DNA of 50,015 nt, from IMG/VR virus record IMGVR_UViG_2917403263_000001; one strand, written 5' to 3'. The notes under the pieces were generated by a model. That model was not told the DNA's origin, searched no databases, and saw only the letters and a list, made by a program, of their open reading frames with translations. Source of the stretch: a virus. Its lineage: Duplodnaviria; Heunggongvirae; Uroviricota; Caudoviricetes. The position numbers were made by a program, and so were the translations under genes. Position 1 is the stretch's first letter. Each line of letters begins with the position of its first letter. Below, piece after piece: positions 29,750-48,462 of this stretch.

Positions 29750-29824
<75 letters not shown>

Positions 29825-29827
29825 ATA

Positions 29828-29903
<76 letters not shown>

Positions 29904-30778: not shown

Positions 30779-31068
30779 AAATAACCTTCCTTTCTCCAGA
30801 TTTCTTGTGTGCGAAAAACACCTTCTGCATGCATCAGGCGTAATTCTTCTTTGGTGTAATCGCTGGTTTTTACTCTCCCGTCGATTAAATCGTGGCATGA
30901 GCTACAGGCAATTGCAGCCTGCATATCGTGTGGCTTTGTCGCTGTTCCACACGTCCCCGCCAGTCTGTAATGCGCCAGCACGGAAGTTTCGGGATTGTGA
31001 TTGCAGTACCCAGGAATTCTGACCTGACACATCTGGCCCCGCGCCGCTTTACGTAAATCTGCCATCAC
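30775..31068 (-). CDS. ybcO: YbcO-like (DUF1364) Cys-rich putative nuclease
   Basis: 97 aa MMADLRKAARGQMCQVRIPGYCNHNPETSVLAHYRL..CSSCHD; coupled to Q (4-nt overlap). Confidence 0.65.
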   Translation of the reverse strand: MMADLRKAARGQMCQVRIPGYCNHNPETSVLAHYRLAGTCGTATKPHDMQAAIACSSCHDLIDGRVKTSDYTKEELRLMHAEGVFRTQEIWRKEGYL

Positions 31069-31664
31069 GCAAACTCCAGCAGCTGTGCAGTCACATTTTC
31101 GACTTGTTCCGGAGAGGAAAATTTACGGAACAGAATCCAGTTCCACAGCACATTCAGTACAGATTTATAAACCTGCTGAAACTCGGTTTCGTCCATATTT
31201 GCAAACGCGATGGATTTCGCCCGACGCCCGCGGCTACCGTCCGGATAAAAATGCTCAGTGTAAAATCCGGCCTGAATGGTTACCCATTCACGGAAGGCGT
31301 CAAATGACTTGAGTAATGCCGTATCCTGGGTTCTGCGTGTCGCAACTGTATTCAGATATTGCTCTGCGGCTTCGCTCAGGGCTGGCGTATGTTCCCTGCC
31401 TACCGAGTCACACAGGTAATCAACGAAACCTGACACCAGTGTTCGTTCGCGAGGCGTGATCGCCCCACCGACCGGAGTCCAGTAATCGAATCCGAGTTGC
31501 AGGAGTTTGAAAAAACGCTTGTGGAATGCGTAGTTACGAACACGCTTAAAGTCAGCGTGTATCCACTCGCCTATTTTTATTTGATGCAGAAAATCGCAAC
31601 TCTCCGGCGTCGCCGGGAGAAGTAAACCAGAAGAAGTTTGTTTGACCAGTTGTATATGTGCCAT
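31065..31664 (-). CDS. nin-region protein of unknown function
   Basis: 199-aa ORF coupled to the ybcO-like gene. Confidence 0.45.
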   Translation of the reverse strand: MAHIQLVKQTSSGLLLPATPESCDFLHQIKIGEWIHADFKRVRNYAFHKRFFKLLQLGFDYWTPVGGAITPRERTLVSGFVDYLCDSVGREHTPALSEAAEQYLNTVATRRTQDTALLKSFDAFREWVTIQAGFYTEHFYPDGSRGRRAKSIAFANMDETEFQQVYKSVLNVLWNWILFRKFSSPEQVENVTAQLLEFA

Positions 31665-31730
31665 CGGTTTTCTCCGGTGGCACGGTGTTACTCAGCAGGG
31701 GGTCAACCCTGTGCTGAATTGTAGATGAAT

Positions 31731-31991
31731 TCACTCAGTCTCAAAAGCAAAAAATCCAGCCTTAAGTCCTATCTCTTTCAAAGCCTGTAATGATGTGACA
31801 AATTCATCTTCACGTAAAATAAAACCGTCCACCATAAGTCCATCCACAAAATAAATTAACACAGCACCGTTCTTCCTTTGCTGGGATTGTAAACATTTAA
31901 TGCGGCAGTGACTGACAATAGTTCCATTCTCAACGCGCACAGCATAGAGGCCATTTTCACTAAACAATTCATGCAATTCTTCGATTTTCAT
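31731..31991 (-). CDS. Hypothetical 86-aa protein (orphan moron gene)
   Basis: SD ggaagga before ATG; preceded by a 250-bp AT-rich region with acaaatacg tandem repeats and a terminator. Confidence 0.45.
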   Translation of the reverse strand: MKIEELHELFSENGLYAVRVENGTIVSHCRIKCLQSQQRKNGAVLIYFVDGLMVDGFILREDEFVTSLQALKEIGLKAGFFAFETE

Positions 31992-32231
31992 CTTCAGAAT
32001 CCTTCCAGATAAATAGCTCTCCCCTTTTCAGGGTCCATCCATCTTCTCCCTGCGCGCTACTCAAAACGGATGAATTCTAATTAATCTTTATTTCGAAGCA
32101 ATCGCAAACGATAAAGACAAAAATAAAAACAAATACGACAAATACGACAAATACAATAATATCGAAAATTAACTAACCATTCGGACAACAAGGCAATATA
32201 ATTTCAGCTAAAATTATTAATCCCTTATTCA

Positions 32232-32258
32232 TGAAAAACAAAACCCGCCGAAGCGGGT
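32232..32258 (-). terminator. Intrinsic terminator downstream of the HTH-peptidase gene
   Basis: aacccgc-cgaa-gcgggtt hairpin followed by U-rich run on the minus strand; same hairpin as at 34070-34094. Confidence 0.65.
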
Positions 32259-32263
32259 TATGC

Positions 32264-33385
32264 CTAGTGAATTTTGCCTCTAAGAGTTCGGTAAGATTGT
32301 AGTGAAACAACATCACCACTTCCTGGCAGTTCATGAACCGCAGGAAGATCATCTCCAACTAACTCATAAAAAATGTCCACTTCTATATCCATTTCATCAG
32401 CTATACGCTGTGGGTCGTATCCTAACTCTTCAAATAAAAACGATAAAGCCCGACGGAATAACTCAGGACGCTCATGAGGGATTAGATAATCTTCTTTTTC
32501 ATCAATAGCTTCCCCTTTCCGTTTCAACCCCATAAATGCAGTTCTGTACTGCTCATCAGTCAAAAGTCCTAATTGATGAGCCCTGTAAACAATGGCAGCC
32601 TTACTTACTTTCCATGTCAACTTAAATTGGCTTAGTCCCTGCCAATTTATCCTCCCCCCCACAGGTCTTGGAAAATATTTCGCCATCGACGTTCTGGGAA
32701 GCAACAGAGCAGAGGCAAAACGGTTTGCCTGGGATTCAGTTAATCTATCACCAGTAGAAATTCCTTCATGAAGAATCAAATGGGCAACCTCATGAGCAAT
32801 ATCAAAGCGTTGCCTACAAGGTGAATTTTTAGCTGTATTTCGAACAATAAAAGGCCTTCGTAGAGGAACAGACAGTGCATCTACTTCATCCGAAACGGAG
32901 TCAAATGAAGTAACAAACGCCCCAAGTTTCTCGGCCAGGCGAGTCATATTTTCAATTGGGCCAAAGCCTAAGCCCCACTCAATACGACATTTTTCTGCCG
33001 CTCGCTCGATATCTTCTTGTGTATGGACACGAAATTCAGGAAATCGAACAGGTGACAAATTAAGATTATCTTCAAATACATCAATAAAACGACGATAAAA
33101 CTCAGCCTTAGCGAGTGTTGATAGCTTCGTTGACATCCTTGTCGAGGCGCGTTTACGAAAATGTACAATCTCTTCATTAACAGGAGAATGTTCCTGCCCT
33201 TCGAAAAAGGCGGGCTTCACGCGCAAAACCTCGGCTAATTTATTTATAAGCTCTGGGGATGGAGTAGCTGAACCAGACTCCAGTCGCTGTACATACTGGC
33301 GTGTTTTTTCAACCTTCTCAGCAACCTGCTCCAGAGATAGCTCGTGATACAGACGAGCAAGTCTTAAATTAGTACCGTTAAACAC
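32264..33385 (-). CDS. XRE-family HTH fused to ImmA/IrrE-type zinc metallopeptidase (COG2856-like)
   Basis: N-terminal HTH LSLEQVAEKVEKTRQYVQRLESG; HEXXH motif HEVAHLILHE; 373 aa. Confidence 0.8.
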   Translation of the reverse strand: MFNGTNLRLARLYHELSLEQVAEKVEKTRQYVQRLESGSATPSPELINKLAEVLRVKPAFFEGQEHSPVNEEIVHFRKRASTRMSTKLSTLAKAEFYRRFIDVFEDNLNLSPVRFPEFRVHTQEDIERAAEKCRIEWGLGFGPIENMTRLAEKLGAFVTSFDSVSDEVDALSVPLRRPFIVRNTAKNSPCRQRFDIAHEVAHLILHEGISTGDRLTESQANRFASALLLPRTSMAKYFPRPVGGRINWQGLSQFKLTWKVSKAAIVYRAHQLGLLTDEQYRTAFMGLKRKGEAIDEKEDYLIPHERPELFRRALSFLFEELGYDPQRIADEMDIEVDIFYELVGDDLPAVHELPGSGDVVSLQSYRTLRGKIH

Positions 33386-33395
33386 ATTTCACCCA

Positions 33396-34037
33396 CTATT
33401 TGCTATTTTGTTTCTTTTCCTTCTCAGTCTTAGACGCACTGATAGGTTCTAGTTCGATAGGTACCGGTGCTGGAGGTACATCATCGACAGAGTTCAGCAT
33501 AACAACACGGTCCGCACCATATGTCCAAGTTGACACGATCTCACCAAACACGTTATAGCCATTAAAAATGACTTTACCACCCTCGCCTTCAAATTCAGGC
33601 TTTTCAACCACAAAGCGATGCATAGTTGGAGTGGTCTCCTCTGACTCAAAGAGTCGATCAGCATCGTTTCTTTTGAAAAAACCGCGTTTCTTGGGATTAT
33701 CTGCGTCATCAGTAAAGAAACGAATAGGGACATTCCCAATTGAAAACGTAAGATCCATGCCAGGATTAAGTAGTCTTAACCAGTCATATGTCTTTCGTAC
33801 GCACATTTGTAGCAACGCCTGCCGCTGACGCCCAAATGTACAACCACCACGAGTGTAATTATCATCATAGGGCGATGACAATAACTCATGAGTAATATCC
33901 TGTATCCTGAGCAACTCCTCAGCTATTATGGTTAAACGATCCTCTGTTAACTCAGGAAAGAACTCCCAAGGGAATGGATGGTTCTGCATAGACACATCTC
34001 CGTCTAATCCGTGCAAAAAACGACTTTTGTCAACCAA
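33396..34037 (-). CDS. Hypothetical protein, first gene of the two-gene cassette
   Basis: 213-aa ORF (possible internal start MQNHPFPW); 10-nt gap to the HTH-peptidase gene; AT-rich; no family recognised. Confidence 0.5.
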   Translation of the reverse strand: MVDKSRFLHGLDGDVSMQNHPFPWEFFPELTEDRLTIIAEELLRIQDITHELLSSPYDDNYTRGGCTFGRQRQALLQMCVRKTYDWLRLLNPGMDLTFSIGNVPIRFFTDDADNPKKRGFFKRNDADRLFESEETTPTMHRFVVEKPEFEGEGGKVIFNGYNVFGEIVSTWTYGADRVVMLNSVDDVPPAPVPIELEPISASKTEKEKKQNSK

Positions 34038-34069
34038 GATATTGGTGCATATTCATAATTTTGTCAACC
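34038..34069 (-). promoter_or_regulatory. Candidate promoter of the two-gene cassette
   Basis: Consensus TTGACA -35 hexamer (complement of 34062-34067) immediately downstream of the terminator; -10 assignment uncertain. Confidence 0.35.
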
Positions 34070-34094
34070 AATAAAAAACCCGCCGAAGCGGGTT
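34070..34094 (-). terminator. Intrinsic terminator downstream of hok-like gene / upstream cassette boundary
   Basis: aacccgc-cgaa-gcgggtt hairpin followed by U-run on the minus strand. Confidence 0.65.
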
Positions 34095-34159: not shown

Positions 34160-34315
34160 TTACTCCTCAGGTTCGTAAGCTGTGAAGACAGCGACCTCCG
34201 TCTGGCCGGTTCGGATTCGTACCTCGCAGAGGTCTTTCCTCGTTACCAGTGCCGTCACTATGACGGTTAAACAGATGACGATCAGGGCGATTAACATCGC
34301 CTTTTGCTGCTTCAT
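34160..34315 (-). CDS. hok: Hok/Gef-family type I toxin
   Basis: 51 aa MKQQKAMLIALIVICLTVIVTALVTRKDLCEVRIRTGQTEVAVFTAYEPEE; SD aaggag; the longer in-frame ORF 34160-34372 may be the mok-like leader. Confidence 0.8.
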   Translation of the reverse strand: MKQQKAMLIALIVICLTVIVTALVTRKDLCEVRIRTGQTEVAVFTAYEPEE

Positions 34316-34582
34316 AGCCTGCTTCTCCTTGACCTTTCGGTCCGTAAGAGGCAATCTATATGTGACGAGCATATAGGGGCCTCACTTCGATTTATAGTCG
34401 GGTGGGGCTTTTCTCTATCTGCCTTTGGTAGCATGCCCGAGGCAGATAGCCTCAAGCACCCGCAGCAATTCTACTTAACTATCTTTTTCCCGCAAATCGT
34501 TTTTATCCCCAGCGGCAAATCGAATACACCATCAGCGCCACCGCCATTGCAATTCCTACCGTTGTGAATGCTTCAGGCCAAC

Positions 34583-40060: not shown

Positions 40061-40483
40061 TTAATGAACAATGACAGAATCGTCGGAAGACCCACCGCCG
40101 CTGAAATGCGCTTTCCGGTAAACGGCCTGAACTGCATCATCATGCGCATCAATTGCCGTACTCAACGCTTCCTGCGCCGCCAGTAATGCACGGCGTTCCA
40201 GGGTATCGAAGATGCAGAGTCGATGACGCAGTTCGCGCGGAAGAATTGCCAGAATTGCTGGGATCAGCTTCTGAATTTTTTCCCTTTGCGCTTTCGTTTC
40301 ACCTTTTAACCAACGGTGATAGATGCTCTGCTGATTATTCCAGTCCTTGCCTGGTACCAAAGGCAATTCGCCGCCCCCCTGCCGCAGATATTCTTCAGTA
40401 ATTGCGTTAGCGACCCACGCCTGCCCTTTTTCGGCTGCCAGGGCTAACAGCACTGATTCGATGTGCTCATGCCTGATTTTCAT
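40061..40483 (-). CDS. ydaT: YdaT-like protein
   Basis: 140 aa, immediately downstream of the Cro-like gene as in Rac. Confidence 0.55.
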   Translation of the reverse strand: MKIRHEHIESVLLALAAEKGQAWVANAITEEYLRQGGGELPLVPGKDWNNQQSIYHRWLKGETKAQREKIQKLIPAILAILPRELRHRLCIFDTLERRALLAAQEALSTAIDAHDDAVQAVYRKAHFSGGGSSDDSVIVH

Positions 40484-40685
40484 GAATCACCTTCCCAGGT
40501 CGTTTTGCCTTACGATATTCGTCATAAACTTTGGGGTCGTACTGAAGCTCCCCGCCAGATGCTTTTTGTAGGCGCATCGCGCGACCTTCGGGAACCAGTT
40601 CACCCCATGCAGCAACACTTGCCAGTTTCACTCCTGCGGCATTGGCAAGCTTTGTTTTGCTGCCAAAAAAAGTAAATTGCATCAA
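40467..40685 (-). CDS. Cro-like / YdaS-like small DNA-binding regulator
   Basis: 72 aa, divergent from the repressor gene across the operator region; GSKTKLANAAGVKLASVAAWG HTH-like. Confidence 0.5.
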   Translation of the reverse strand: MMQFTFFGSKTKLANAAGVKLASVAAWGELVPEGRAMRLQKASGGELQYDPKVYDEYRKAKRPGKVIHENQA

Positions 40686-40707: not shown

Positions 40708-40751
40708 TTGTTAGATATTTCTAACAGTAATGTGCGCGGGATATCTAAGTC
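40708..40751. promoter_or_regulatory. Operator dyads between cro-like and repressor genes (OR-like)
   Basis: TTGTTAGA-tatt-TCTAACAg palindrome at 40708-40727 plus inverse half-site ATATCTAA at 40744-40751. Confidence 0.5.
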
Positions 40752-40775: not shown

Positions 40776-41183
40776 ATGGATACAAGAACCCTAGGCCAGC
40801 GAGTTCTGGCACGACGAAAAGAATTACGCCTAACACAACGAGAAGCTGCACGCCTCGCTGGGGTAGCTCACGTCACAATTTCGCAATGGGAAAGAGACGA
40901 AACCCAACCAGTCGGGAAGCGGTTGTTTGCTTTAGCGGATGCGCTGAAGTGCTCGCCTACATGGCTAATGTTTGGTGACGAAGACAAGGCACCAGTACCA
41001 GCACAAGAACTTCATGTGGAAACCGAGTTAACTCCCAACCACAAAGAATTGATCGAATTATTCGATGCTCTTCCATCCTCCGAGCAGGAAGCCTTGCTGT
41101 CTGAAATGCGCGCAAGAGTAGAGAATTTCAATAAACTCTTCGAAGAAATGCTTAAAGCGCGTAAAAACAAATCAATAAAATAA
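40776..41183 (+). CDS. CI-like repressor (XRE-family HTH)
   Basis: 135 aa; HTH LRLTQREAARLAGVAHVTISQWERDE; divergent from cro-like gene; flanked by operator dyads. Confidence 0.7.
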   Translation: MDTRTLGQRVLARRKELRLTQREAARLAGVAHVTISQWERDETQPVGKRLFALADALKCSPTWLMFGDEDKAPVPAQELHVETELTPNHKELIELFDALPSSEQEALLSEMRARVENFNKLFEEMLKARKNKSIK

Positions 41184-41199: not shown

Positions 41200-41274
41200 T
41201 TAGATTCTCCCACCCTTTTTGTTAGACTGATCTAACAAAAAACACTTGCCATATTTGTTAGGTTATTCTAAATT
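41200..41274. promoter_or_regulatory. Operator array downstream of the repressor gene (OL-like)
   Basis: Perfect dyad TTGTTAGA-ctga-TCTAACAA at 41219-41238; partial sites at 41200-41205 and 41255-41274. Confidence 0.5.
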
Positions 41275-43815: not shown

Positions 43816-46800
43816 ATGAGCACAAAACCACTTTTCCTGTTACGGAAAGCGAAAAAATCATCCGGTGAACCTGACGTCGTCCTCTGGGCAAGCGACGATT
43901 TTGAATCGACCTGTGCCACTCTGGACTACCTGCTCGTTAAGTCAGGTAAAAAACTGAGCAGCTATTTTAAACATGTTGCCACGAATTTTCCTGTCGTTAA
44001 TGACCTTCCCCCTGAAGGTGAGATCGATTTTACCTGGAGTGAACGCTATCAACTCAGCAAAGACTCCATGACCTGGGAACTAAAACCAGGAACAGCGCCA
44101 GACGACGTTCACCATCAGGAGAATGCACCGGAAACCGAAGAACCGGCGGGAGGCCAGGAAGAAAACACACGGGCAGACGCTCACGGGGATTGCCAGGATT
44201 GCGAAGTATCTGTATCTACTTTGCGGTTCACACAGCGTCTTCTGCACATTTTTACCTATGCGGCCGGGGATCGGAAATACCTGCATCATGCCACCCGAGA
44301 ACAACGCGAACACATTACTGCTCTTGAGATGGATCAGGAAAACAGCTATGTCCAGAATCTGCTGTTGGCCATACGCGGCATGGCAGAACCGACAACTCTG
44401 GATAATGCCGCCCTGCTCCGCCTGACTGATGCAATTAAGGCAGTTTTCTCTATCACGAAAAAACATCAGCCCTATGAATTTAAGAATTTCATTTCAGCCT
44501 GGCTGGATACCGAACACATTGATCGCGGTCTTCTGACAAAAGAATGGCAAAAAGGGAATCGTGTTTCACGCATCACTCGCACGGCTTCCGGTGCTAATGC
44601 TGGCGGCGGGAACCTCACCGATCGCGGCGAAGGTTTCGTCCATGATCTGACGTCACTGGCGCGCGATGTAGCCACTGGCGTACTGGCCCGTTCAATGGAC
44701 GTGGACATCTATAACCTTCATCCGGCACACGCGAAACGCATTGAGGAAATTATCGCTGAAAATAAACCGCCCTTTTCTGTTTTCCGCGACAAATTCATCA
44801 CCATGCCTGGCGGGCTGGATTATTCACGCGCCATCGTGGTTGCGTCCGTGAAAGAAGCACCAATTGGGATCGAGGTCATCCCCGCGCACGTCACTGAATA
44901 TCTGAACAAAGTACTGACTGAAACCGATCATGCCAACCCTGATCCGGAAATCGTGGATATTGCCTGCGGTCGCTCCTCTGCCCCGATGCCGCAGCGTGTA
45001 ACAGAAGAAGGAAAACAGGATGATGAAGAAAAACCACAACCAACTGGAACAACGGCAGATGAACAGGGAGAGGCTGAAACAATGGAACCGGACGCAACTG
45101 AACATCATCAGGACACGCAGCCGCTGGATGCTCAGTCACAGGTAAATTCTGTTGATGCGAAATATCAGGAACTGCGGGCAGAACTCCATGAAGCCCGGAA
45201 AAACATTCCATCAAAAAATCCTGTCGATGCCGATAAATTGCTTGCTGCATCACGTGGTGAATTTGTTGACGGAATTAGCGACCCGAACGATCCGAAATGG
45301 GTTAAGGGGATCCAGACTCGCGATTCTGTGTACCAGAACCAGCCAGAAACGGAACAAAACACGCCAGAAACTGAAAAAACCAGCCCGGATGTGAAACAAC
45401 CAGAGCCAGTAGTGCAACAGGAACCGGAGAAAGTCTGCAATGTCTGTGGCAAGACTGGCGGGGATAACTGCCCTGACTGTGGTGCGGTGATGGGCGACGC
45501 AACATACCAGGAAACATTCGATGAAGAGAATCAGGTTGAAGCTAAGGAAAAAGATCCGGTGGAAATGGAAGGCGCTGAACATCCGCACAATGAGAATGCT
45601 GGCAGCGATCCGCATCGTGATTGCAGTGATGAAACTGGTGAAGCGTCAGCTCCTGTAGCAACTGAAATCATGTGGCCGTCATATTTCGAGCCTGGCCGCT
45701 ATGAAAACCTCCCGAACGAGGTTTATCACTCCGCCAACGGAATAAGCAGCACGATGCTGAAGGATGCCCGTATCAGCCTGATGTATTACCACGGACGGCA
45801 CATTACCGGAACTATTCCGAACGAGGAAAGTGATGCACTGCTGCGTGGGCGGATCATTCACAGCTATGTTCTGGAAACGGATAAATTCGCTGATGAATAT
45901 GCCATTCCGGTACCGGTTCCTGAATATGTGGTTACTACTTCTAACGAACTGATCGCCATCATTAAAAAACACAATGCCAGTCTGCCAGCACTGATGACAC
46001 CAGAGCAGATGAAAGAGTGGATCGAAAGCTACAACAGCACTCTTATACAGCCACTGTCTGTAAGTGCCGGGGCCGAAGAAACAGGCATCCTTTACGGTTC
46101 GCTTCCGGTGGAATTTCGGCGTATTCCTGAGGGGGAAAAACACACAGCATCAGCAATGAAAGCCTGTATTAAAGAATACAACGCAAGCCTCCCTCCTCTG
46201 TTGAAAACCAGTGGAGCACGGGAGCAGCTTCTGGATCAAATTGAAACTGTAGACCCAGAACTGGCAAAAAAAGAACGTGCTAAATCTTTGCCTTACAACA
46301 TCAGTGGCACAAAAGAGCAATTAACCGAAATCGCACGGAAAATTCGCCCGGAACTGGTGACACTGGAGGACTGGCAAAAACGCCAGCAAGAAGAAAATGC
46401 CGGGAAAACGTTTATCAGTCCGGATATGTATGAACAGGCAAAAAATATTCACGCGGCACTGCAAAACAATACCGATGCAGCAAGGCTACTCAACCACCCG
46501 GATCGCAAATCTGAAATCAGCTATTTCGGGTTTGATGAAGAAACCGGGCTGGAAATCAGGGTCCGTCCTGATATCGAAATCCGGCTGCCATACGAAAGCA
46601 TTTGCGCTGACGTGAAGTCAGTCAGCCTCGGTTATGTGCGACAGGAACGACTTAAAGATCGCCTGCACCGTGAAATTATTGAGCGTGATTATCACCTCAG
46701 CGCCGCAATGTATTGCGATGTGGCAAACCTGGACAAATTTTTCTGGATCTTCGTCAACAAAGATGCTGGCTATCACTGGGTGGCAGTCGTGGAAGCCTCG

Positions 46801-46959
46801 CAGGAACTCCTGGAACTTGGTCGACAGGAATATCGCCGGACGCTACGCCAGATAAACGAAGCCCTGGAGACAAACAACTGGCCAGCACCGATTACCGAAA
46901 GTTATACCGACGAATTAAACGACTTTGATCTTCGTCGTCTTGAAGCACTGAGCATCTGA
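43816..46959 (+). CDS. recE: RecE-like exonuclease VIII with divergent, insertion-bearing C-terminal PD-(D/E)XK domain
   Basis: 1047 aa; N-terminal ~600 aa match Rac RecE (recalled: [29 protein letters not shown]); C-terminal [13 protein letters not shown] nuclease motifs; internal repeat HNASLPALM / YNASLPPLL. Confidence 0.8.
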
Positions 46960-46970
46960 GGAAGGACACA

Positions 46971-48023
46971 ATGAACGAATTAACTCAACAAGAAAATATT
47001 AACTCTAATGTTGCGGTTTTCAGCCCTCAGTCCCTGGCTGCAATTCAGACATTTTCCCAGGTAATGGCTTCCGGCATGGCTACTGTACCGGAACACCTCC
47101 GGGGAAATCCATCAGACTGCATGGCCATCACCATGCAGGCGATGCAGTGGCAAATGAACCCTTACGCAGTAGCTCAGAAAACTTTCGTTGTGAATGGTGT
47201 GCTCGGATATGAAGCGCAACTGGTTAATGCCGTAATCAGTACTCGTGGGCCGCTAACCGGGCGTATTGAATATGACTGGTTCGGGCCGTGGGAAAAAATT
47301 ATCGGGAAATTTGAAATCAGGAAGAGCGACAAAGGGAAAGAATATCGTGTACCTGGCTGGAAGCTGGCCGATGAAAACGGGATCGGTGTTCGTGTCCAGG
47401 CAACACTACGCGGCGAAAGTAAACCACGCGTACTGGAATTACTTCTGGCGCAGGCCAGAACACGTAACTCAACGCTATGGGCCGACGATCCTCGCCAGCA
47501 GCTTGCCTATCTGGCGCTGAAACGCTGGGCGCGCCTTTATTGCCCCGAAGTGATTCTTGGAGTGTACACCAGGGACGAACTGGACGAGCCACAGGAAAAA
47601 ATCATTAATCCGGTTCAGGAACATAAAAACACTTCCGCTTGCCGCGCGGAACGTGAAACAACAATTATTGAGCAGGATGCCGGGGAAAACTGGATCGATG
47701 CTTTCCGTGAACGTATTGAGCAGGCACAAAGCACCGGGGAAACAACAGCACTTCGCCAGGAAGTGGAAGATCATAAAAATACACTTGGCGCTCTCTATAC
47801 GGAACTTAAAGGAAAAGTGGTTCAGCGTCATCACCGTCTCAATGCTATTGCCCGTATCGAGAAGATGATAAATGACCTACCTTCTTCAGGTGATCCAGAA
47901 GCAGAACAAAAATTTACTGCTCTGGAAAATACGCTGAATGCTGCCCGGCCACATCTGGGTGAATTATATGAGGCGTATAAAACGACACTGACAGATATGA
48001 AACCAGAATATATCGGCTCCTGA
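46971..48023 (+). CDS. Putative single-strand annealing protein, divergent RecT-family, in the recT position
   Basis: 350 aa directly downstream of recE-like gene; LAYLALKRWARLYCPEV resembles the RecT-family C-terminal motif; not canonical E. coli RecT. Confidence 0.5.
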   Translation: MNELTQQENINSNVAVFSPQSLAAIQTFSQVMASGMATVPEHLRGNPSDCMAITMQAMQWQMNPYAVAQKTFVVNGVLGYEAQLVNAVISTRGPLTGRIEYDWFGPWEKIIGKFEIRKSDKGKEYRVPGWKLADENGIGVRVQATLRGESKPRVLELLLAQARTRNSTLWADDPRQQLAYLALKRWARLYCPEVILGVYTRDELDEPQEKIINPVQEHKNTSACRAERETTIIEQDAGENWIDAFRERIEQAQSTGETTALRQEVEDHKNTLGALYTELKGKVVQRHHRLNAIARIEKMINDLPSSGDPEAEQKFTALENTLNAARPHLGELYEAYKTTLTDMKPEYIGS

Positions 48024-48086: not shown

Positions 48087-48281
48087 ATGCGGTATGAAAA
48101 AGTCAAACCATGCCCTTTTTGTGGTTGTCCATCAGTAACGGTGAAAGCCATTTCAGGATATTACCGCGCGAAGTGTAACGGATGCGAATCCCGAACCGGC
48201 TATGGTGGAAGTGAAAAAGAAGCACTCGAACGATGGAATAAACGAACCACTGGAAATAATAATGGAGGTGTTCATGTATAA
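48087..48281 (+). CDS. ralR: Restriction alleviation protein Lar / RalR
   Basis: MRYEKVKPCPFCGCPSVTVKAISGYYRAKCNGCESRTGYGG; matches Rac Lar/RalR (recalled). Confidence 0.8.
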   Translation: MRYEKVKPCPFCGCPSVTVKAISGYYRAKCNGCESRTGYGGSEKEALERWNKRTTGNNNGGVHV

Positions 48282-48462
48282 AATTACCGCCACTATTGAA
48301 AAGGAAGGTGGCACTCCTACTAACTGGACAAGGTACTCAAAAACAAAATTAACCAAATCAGAATGCGAAAAAATGCTCTCAGGTAAAAAAGAAGCAGGCG
48401 TTTCCAGAGAGCAGAAAGTAAAACTGATAAATTTTAATTGCGAGAAAATTCAGTCCTCGTGA
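48276..48462 (+). CDS. ydaC: YdaC-like small protein
   Basis: MYKITATIEKEGGTPTNWTRYSK..; SD ggagg; overlaps ralR end. Confidence 0.55.

Follow-up and report, generated by a model that had tools for sequence, protein, structure and literature searches.

The 50,015-nucleotide stretch of viral DNA analysed here in its entirety (IMG/VR record IMGVR_UViG_2917403263_000001; hereafter the window) contains, on its minus strand, an open reading frame (ORF) for a protein of 86 amino acids (aa) which, judged from its sequence, can be placed in the Rem family with very high confidence. We consider it probable (approximately 0.75) that this gene, rem, encodes a prophage antirepressor that inactivates a DicA-type repressor, and that it is expressed as its own transcription unit, with a leader and without SOS control. 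The gene is of a known kind, an allele of the Rem antirepressor, and itself needs only the correct name; what is new is that its presumed promoter and leader show stronger conservation than the protein, are common to three antirepressor alleles and are devoid of a LexA box. K-12 Rem (b1561), encoded by the Qin cryptic prophage of Escherichia coli, is an antirepressor of DicA, and the conserved promoter-leader module offers a handle on the question left open by that work, namely what turns Rem on (Ragunathan et al. 2023, PMC10448788). The leader could thereby lead to a non-SOS route of prophage derepression in E. coli, which would be of relevance to prophage toxins, including those of LT-II and Stx phages with homologues of rem. 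The coordinates of all features discussed are collected in Table 1.

Identity and spread of the rem gene

The original prediction, made from the DNA letters without database searches, had described a small orphan gene with a good Shine-Dalgarno sequence. The ORF and its AAGGA were confirmed, the latter being kept in most variants of the leader that precedes the gene, while the term orphan had to be abandoned: the protein displays 70% amino acid identity to E. coli K-12 Rem over its full length (E 2e-39) and matches phrog_340 (E 3.5e-22), and an identical protein, on record in 57 blocks of a public assembly collection, bears the precomputed Pfam assignment PF27490 'Rem'. Furthermore, DNA homologous to positions 31665–32064 is present in 2510 of 5426 complete E. 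coli genomes, and this segment is approximately 80% identical to the rem gene of phages or prophages. The local copy of Pfam (which is older than PF27490) and PADLOC returned no match for the 86-aa protein, and a literature search under the locus tag b1561 turned up only unrelated papers. An identity as Hfq, the sole NCBIfam match, which at 17 bits (E 0.003) fell short of the cut-off of 61.7, was judged to be due to chance and was rejected.

Far from lacking conservation in related prophages, a possibility that the original prediction had left open, rem is conserved, and the ratio of nonsynonymous to synonymous substitution rates (dN/dS) of 0.17–0.26, calculated against five diverged alleles, indicates that the ORF is a real gene whose protein is under purifying selection. 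The C-terminal core DGFxLRxDEFVTSLxxLKExGxKAGF, corresponding to residues 55–80 of the window Rem, consists of columns that are invariant or nearly so across the family alignments. An AlphaFold2 model generated on a wider alignment reached a predicted local distance difference test (pLDDT) score of 82.9 and adopts an alpha-beta4-alpha topology; Foldseek searches with the Rem models (pLDDT 65 and 83) against PDB and BFVD gave no match with E < 0.001.

Loci were gathered by exact-protein look-ups and by a DNA-motif scan of viral contigs, a contig scan with the single protein having yielded two loci. In total, 113 Rem relatives were found, nearly throughout in Escherichia or Shigella, and when 1.8 billion representative proteins were searched with a profile, just 52 matched, including short forms of 56–99 aa that retain the core GFxLRxDEFVTSL...AG. 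The gene also resides in the backbone of functional phages, namely mEp460_ev081, HannyBb and PhiR42_1. As a separate observation, public data contain DicC-Rem fusion proteins (P0055 and P0057; 127 aa), in which roughly the N-terminal 50 residues of DicC continue in frame into Rem, starting at about its residue 7; this points to deletions by which rem came under control of the dicC promoter.

Presumed promoter, leader and LexA operators

When the window was compared to K-12, Rac-442 and three other loci, similarity was found to begin abruptly at the hexamer TAGAAT and to extend to the ATG of rem, the DNA upstream of TAGAAT being unrelated. A scan of IMG/VR with the leader motif GCGCGCAGGGANAAGANGGATGG identified 120 further loci, and all 47 distinct upstream variants, representing at least ten unrelated upstream classes, carry TAGAAT unchanged. 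Additionally, a TTGnnn hexamer precedes TAGAAT by exactly 16 bp in the class to which the window belongs and in at least eight other unrelated upstream classes (as compared to 18 bp in the K-12 class), the chance of encountering TTG at a fixed position being 1 in 64 per class. We infer from these alignments that TTGCTT-16 bp-TAGAAT is a sigma-70 promoter with transcription starting near position 32067. A consensus promoter scan missed this promoter, which scored 8/12 against a cut-off of 9.

The stretch between this putative start and the ATG, a G-rich leader, is 0.75–0.96 identical to that of ten diverged loci, as opposed to 0.45–0.88 for the coding sequence and approximately 0.55–0.68 for the upstream DNA; the eleventh locus compared, L002, shares the upstream class of the window. 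Among 136 loci, 34 variants of the leader were recorded. A CCC(C)/GGG(G) stem is kept in these 34 variants, while the loop that it encloses varies both in sequence and in length (approximately 3–6 nt); compensatory changes were not found in the stem. The six GGA motifs of the leader, where about three would be expected (an estimate from base composition), constitute weak evidence for CsrA, and rem is absent from the entries in the available part of a supplement on E. coli CsrA crosslinking and immunoprecipitation sequencing. A mini-ORF within the leader (31994–32038; MDPEKGRAIYLEGF) was considered as a conserved peptide and rejected, since its ATG is kept but its length ranges from 3 to 14 codons and its frame shifts between alleles. 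No convincing terminator was detected after rem. With a terminator preceding it, and a promoter and a leader of about 75 nt of its own, rem would constitute a separate transcription unit.

The intergenic region 31992–32263 contains no CTG-N10-CAG sequence, and the best LexA-like site of the window agrees with the operator at 5/8 core positions, as compared to 8/8 in the positive controls. Similarly, 129 loci that carry the leader, with 81 distinct upstream sequences among them, were all devoid of CTGT-N8-ACAG. This absence agrees with the lack of mitomycin C induction reported for K-12 (PMC10448788), and a promoter-leader module that is free of a LexA box suggests that expression of rem is probably not SOS-controlled. 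Conversely, four distant members of PF27490 that were sampled (62, 64, 71 and 91 aa; L143 to L146) all carry a canonical LexA box, 146–191 nt upstream of the start codon (for example TACTGTATTTATATACAGAT; the boxes are located at 90–115 in L143 and 2540–2560 in L144, and are likewise present in L145 and L146). The PF27490 family thus appears to employ two modes of regulation.

These distant members share with the window Rem the conserved core (GFxLRxDEFVTSL...AG) and lie at a similar place in the early-right operon, three of them directly before DUF1367-YbcO-Q or RusA-Q; one of the three shortest is situated 3' of hok and of the same terminator hairpin as is present in the window. They differ in that the forms of 62, 64 and 71 aa are devoid of the N-terminal approximately 35 residues of Rem, while the 91-aa form (L146) possesses a divergent N-terminus; downstream of it comes a DUF968/RecA-dependent-nuclease-like gene, and its locus lacks Q. 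Moreover, none of the four possesses the GGA-rich leader. It may be speculated, albeit as a rather doubtful scenario, that in the Escherichia Rem clade the ancestral LexA operator of PF27490 was replaced by a portable promoter-leader module that responds to a signal other than DNA damage, with CsrA or another RNA-binding factor acting post-transcriptionally as one candidate, and that in the lineage of the window the copies of the 9-bp repeat ahead of the promoter (see below) additionally set the induction threshold by strain.

The DicA-type repressor and the probable antirepressor slot

There is good reason to think, from homology and context, that the window Rem acts on the DicA homologue of the window, the gene of which is located 8.8 kb from rem. 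In K-12, ectopic Rem increased transcription from the DicA-repressed promoter dicBp 165-fold and caused filamentation via DicB and DicF (PMC10448788). The window repressor is of the short type, as a protein identical to it (in L007) contains HTH_3 only and no S24 peptidase domain. A pattern search for operators of the form TGTTAG-N6-CTAACA located three sites only in the whole window, all in the immunity region; near rem, the same type of search identified no DicA-type operator, a half-site being apparent by eye only. Rem would inactivate the repressor, probably by forming a stable complex with it (by analogy with the Gifsy antirepressors), and this would free the operators at 40709, 41220 and 41256, so that the early operons would be derepressed. 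The promoter-leader module common to the alternative antirepressor alleles would drive rem, the input signal probably acting through the leader.

The same leader precedes three types of small protein, with 98 loci for type A, 21 for type B and 11 for type C. Type A is Rem; type B (57 aa; MKIEELREIFSEDGLYAVRVENGGITYTALIPDDHVVLSVEAFIEYLERLGFKVVRE; phrog_340) combines the first 23 residues of Rem with a different C-terminus; and type C (55 aa; MNDKELIAALS...; phrog_34610) is unrelated. Types B and C were found among the IMG/VR loci L023 to L136, in the slot that is occupied by positions 31731–31991 in the window. Type A is accompanied by a DicA-family repressor in 41 of the 42 loci with a scorable upstream region and type C by a different, non-DicA type of repressor in all six scorable loci, and these counts, which ignore shared ancestry, fit a slot for antirepressors that are matched to the repressor class. 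A tblastn search with K-12 RacR produced no matches in the loci, signifying that the repressor associated with type C is not RacR-like at that sensitivity.

The likeness to the K-12 locus extends to the promoter -10 hexamer and the leader, to the lack of a LexA box in either locus, to the partners DicA and DicC (identities in Table 1) and to the place of the gene between hok and the genes leading to Q (hokD, rem, ydfU, Q in K-12). Differences concern the protein itself (83 aa in K-12 as against 86 aa, the window Rem having a four-residue insertion, QSQQ), the spacer of the promoter and the genes downstream, which are DUF968-Q in K-12 and DUF1367-YbcO-Q (DUF1133) in the window. Of the two, the window alone includes the additional block of 27% GC, with its 9-bp repeat, ahead of the promoter and a RosmerTA cassette between hok and rem, and its prophage is Rac-like (RecET, RalR/RalA), unlike Qin.

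A second parallel is provided by the Gifsy antirepressors GfoA, GftA and GfhA, which form stable complexes with short repressors that are uncleaved during induction, and whose target group includes DicA and RacR (Lemire et al. 2011, PMC3121763). Their genes form a LexA-controlled unit 3' of a terminator, in the order dinI, antirepressor, irsA (PMC3121763). The window resembles this arrangement in that a small protein is paired with a short repressor of the DicA/RacR group and its gene is located 3' of a terminator and directly upstream of irsA/DUF1367: the window DUF1367 protein is 53% identical to Gifsy-2 STM1020, in the position that Lemire et al. (PMC3121763) assign to the irsA homologue, and the slot as a whole, in which DUF1367/IrsA, YbcO and Q follow the antirepressor, corresponds to the antirepressor-irsA pair of Gifsy. 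It differs in the LexA box and dinI, both of which are present in Gifsy and neither in the window. K-12 Rem was originally identified via a PSI-BLAST chain starting at GfoA (PMC10448788), a chain that was not reproduced in the current analysis; GftA belongs to phrog_4847 and Rem to phrog_340. The comparison therefore supports a relationship of position and function between Gifsy antirepressors and Rem, and not one of sequence membership.

Functional analogues of Rem are Tum of phage 186 and Ant of P22, small phage proteins that inactivate the immunity repressor without cleavage, although both are unrelated to Rem in sequence and genome position. Tum is LexA-controlled; Arc, Mnt and an antisense RNA govern P22 ant.

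Several points weigh against rem being an antirepressor gene with a dedicated promoter and leader. The activity of the window Rem is deduced by homology, and a direct Rem-DicA complex is an analogy even for K-12; furthermore, an hhalign comparison of the Rem and Gifsy-2 GftA sequences was not significant (probability 1.1%). The promoter and the transcription start derive from conservation only, the predicted leader fold does not exceed shuffled sequences in stability (z = -0.24), and Rfam gave no match in the rem region, either with E-value thresholds on 28–36 kb or with gathering thresholds on the whole window. One locus, L008 (GCA_004745385.1, 2026–2867), which is the only exception to the pairing of Rem with DicA, combines an identical Rem with a non-DicA-type repressor (a 111-aa ORF) and a YdaS-type Cro; this locus could have arisen by recombination, or it could reflect a broader specificity of Rem. 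Lastly, deletion of rem in K-12 leaves unaltered the spontaneous switching of dicBp, its induction by urea and the accumulation of DicF in stationary phase (PMC10448788); since the deletion is without effect on the induction phenotypes tested, the natural role of rem is unproven.

This last result would also suit an antirepressor that operates mainly in trans, being made by an infecting or induced phage against resident DicA-type immunity, or that locks in lytic growth, without being the primary trigger. Such a role is unlikely in our estimation, even if it is in keeping with a broad specificity of Rem, as each of the two Rem subtypes is found alongside all three DicA allele groups (whose differences lie mainly in the DNA-binding half at the N-terminus), with the finding that Gifsy antirepressors work across prophages (PMC3121763), and with the position of rem in the delayed-early (nin) region upstream of Q. 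It is opposed by the terminator in front of rem and by the conserved promoter and leader of the gene, which argue for a dedicated input rather than simple read-through, and by the LexA-controlled relatives, which are primary triggers.

Table 1. Location in the window of rem, its presumed control elements, the adjoining genes and the immunity region
Feature	Position	Strand	Remarks
DUF1367 gene (IrsA homologue)	31065–31664	-	Directly downstream of rem; Pfam DUF1367, E 4e-97
rem	31731–31991	-	86-aa ORF with ATG start; Rem-family (PF27490) antirepressor gene
Leader, G-rich	31992–32067	-	Inferred 5' untranslated region of about 75 nt; conserved; six GGA motifs
Shine-Dalgarno sequence AAGGA of rem	32000–32004	-	8 nt before ATG; read from sequence
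Leader hairpin CCCU-GAAA-AGGG	32022–32033	-	Stem invariant, loop free to vary
-10 hexamer TAGAAT	32074–32079	-	Inferred rem promoter
-35 hexamer TTGCTT	32096–32101	-	16-bp spacer to TAGAAT
AT-rich block	32102–32241	.	About 27% GC, about 140 bp; between terminator and -35 hexamer; lineage-specific
9-bp tandem repeat	32129–32154	.	Tandem Repeats Finder: period 9, 2.9 copies, 100% matches, unit ACAAATACG
Terminator hairpin AACCCGCTTCGGCGGGTT with T-run	32242–32259	-	5 bp downstream of the stop codon of the 373-aa gene
rmrA (RmrA, 373 aa)	32264–33385	-	Same strand as rem; PADLOC E 4e-201
rmrT (RmrT)	33396–34037	-	Same strand as rem; PADLOC E 1e-92, match from residue 17
DicC/Cro-like gene	40467–40685	-	72 aa; 71% identity to K-12 DicC
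Operator TGTTAGATATTTCTAACA	40709–40726	+	Between the dicA-like and dicC-like genes
DicA-type repressor gene	40776–41183	+	135 aa; 57% identity to K-12 DicA; presumed Rem target
Further operators	41220–41237, 41256–41273		Pattern search

The RosmerTA cassette, the AT-rich block and neighbouring features

In the early-right (nin) region of the window, the gene order is hok/sok, RosmerTA, rem, DUF1367, YbcO and Q (DUF1133-type). As the original prediction had stated, rem lies just downstream of the cassette terminator, and this hairpin, AACCCGCTTCGGCGGGTT, occurs twice in identical form (34077–34094 and 32242–32259), flanking RosmerTA. In loci without RosmerTA, the same hairpin is the hok terminator and is found directly upstream of the rem region. 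The copy at 32242–32259 hence duplicates the hok terminator and delimits the RosmerTA insertion on its right, an arrangement suggestive of insertion of the cassette by recombination at the terminator.

The cassette was detected at 99.3% identity in 23 complete E. coli genomes, and the three of these that were inspected contain a truncated hok, the cassette, the hairpin and then the next backbone gene, but no rem. Conversely, an identical Rem with the same upstream DNA directly follows hok, without RosmerTA, in five of six look-up loci (L007, L008, L009, L011 and L012), as does an allele of 98% identity in L013. The two elements thus each occur without the other, rem being unaccompanied by the cassette nearly everywhere, which leaves scarcely any credence for the suggestion of the original prediction that rem is a third component of the cassette. 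As such, it might have served as a modulator or a second antitoxin, for example. The adjacency of the two on one strand would agree with this suggestion, as would the same arrangement in L010, the only look-up locus to share it. However, RosmerTA is complete as the pair RmrT and RmrA, bounded by the two hok terminator hairpins, and a terminator separates it from rem, which has its own inferred promoter.

The original prediction had alternatively viewed rem as an independent moron, and this view was borne out in one respect: rem is a real, separate gene that is independent of the cassette. It is probably not a moron in the usual sense, occupying a fixed slot for antirepressors in the prophage backbone. 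A role as host-benefit cargo unrelated to prophage immunity is very improbable, despite the position of rem as its own transcription unit after a terminator, its GC content of 38%, the junction between hok and rem being a cargo hotspot and the lack of a structural homologue that would fix the biochemistry of Rem. The position of rem is fixed in very many prophages, including those of 2510 of 5426 E. coli genomes, and in the functional phages named above, the K-12 homologue acts specifically, via DicA and dicBp, the type of allele co-varies with the type of repressor, and distant members of the family are LexA-controlled in the manner of known antirepressors. These findings favour an antirepressor, while it is RosmerTA that is the moron, inserted between hok and rem. 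The DNA just upstream of hok is also a cargo hotspot in other loci, where it contains a methylase and an ATPase, a pair composed of a helix-turn-helix (HTH) protein and an M78 peptidase, a transposase, or genes without an assigned role.

The AT-rich intergenic stretch upstream of rem, to which the original prediction had drawn attention, measures 272 bp (31992–32263) with 35.7% GC, and its inner part (32065–32241) has 26.6% GC as compared to 48.1% for the whole window. The AT-rich block itself is absent from the K-12, Rac-442, L005, L015, L016 and L017 loci, and is present in 21 of the 5426 E. coli genomes, where it is single-copy and intergenic. A 19-codon ORF within the block was rejected as a candidate gene, as it is not conserved and its ATG is replaced by ACG in strain C012. 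The predicted tandem repeats were confirmed as a perfect 9-bp array. The sense strand reads GTATTTGTC, or GTATTTGTC with a T variant, and a sister lineage has TGTATTGTT; 27 nt separate the end of the array from the -35 hexamer. Three copies are present in the window and L010, four in L008, L012 and L013, five in L009 and L003, six in L007 and L011, and ten in L002. Such a range, from 3 to 10 in otherwise very similar loci, indicates a true variable-number repeat and more than a chance occurrence. The AT-rich block and its repeat represent a lineage-specific addition upstream of the promoter that may modulate promoter strength; the repeat may either tune the promoter (for example through an effect similar to that of an UP element, curvature or H-NS binding) or reflect neutral slippage.

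Upstream of the cassette, the window contains an intact hok/mok/sok type I toxin-antitoxin locus (34160–34461; Pfam HOK_GEF; Rfam sok, 110 bits), and hok or a truncated remnant of it precedes the antirepressor slot in most of the loci inspected. In the cassette region, a 13-nt direct repeat on the minus strand, TTGGTTGACAAAA, occurs twice, 34 bp apart (34025–34071), each copy including TTGACA; one copy is located just upstream of rmrT and the other extends across the TTG start of the rmrT ORF. These repeats are plausibly the promoter of the cassette and/or an operator for the HTH protein RmrA.

The prophage is Rac-like in possessing a RecE-like exonuclease VIII (1047 aa) and RecT (43816–48023) as well as an integrase. 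Its left arm is of the Rac type, yet its immunity region is of the DicA/DicC (Qin) type. The RalA antitoxin small RNA (Rfam, 213 bits) and an adjacent small ORF represent RalR/RalA at 48280–48458. Downstream of Q, genes for tRNA-Gly(TCC) and tRNA-Thr(TGT) are present at 29750–29903, as in several related prophages, and genes for LT-II enterotoxin are found further downstream in related loci, namely L008, L009 and L011, which encode an identical Rem, and L013, which encodes the allele of 98% identity.

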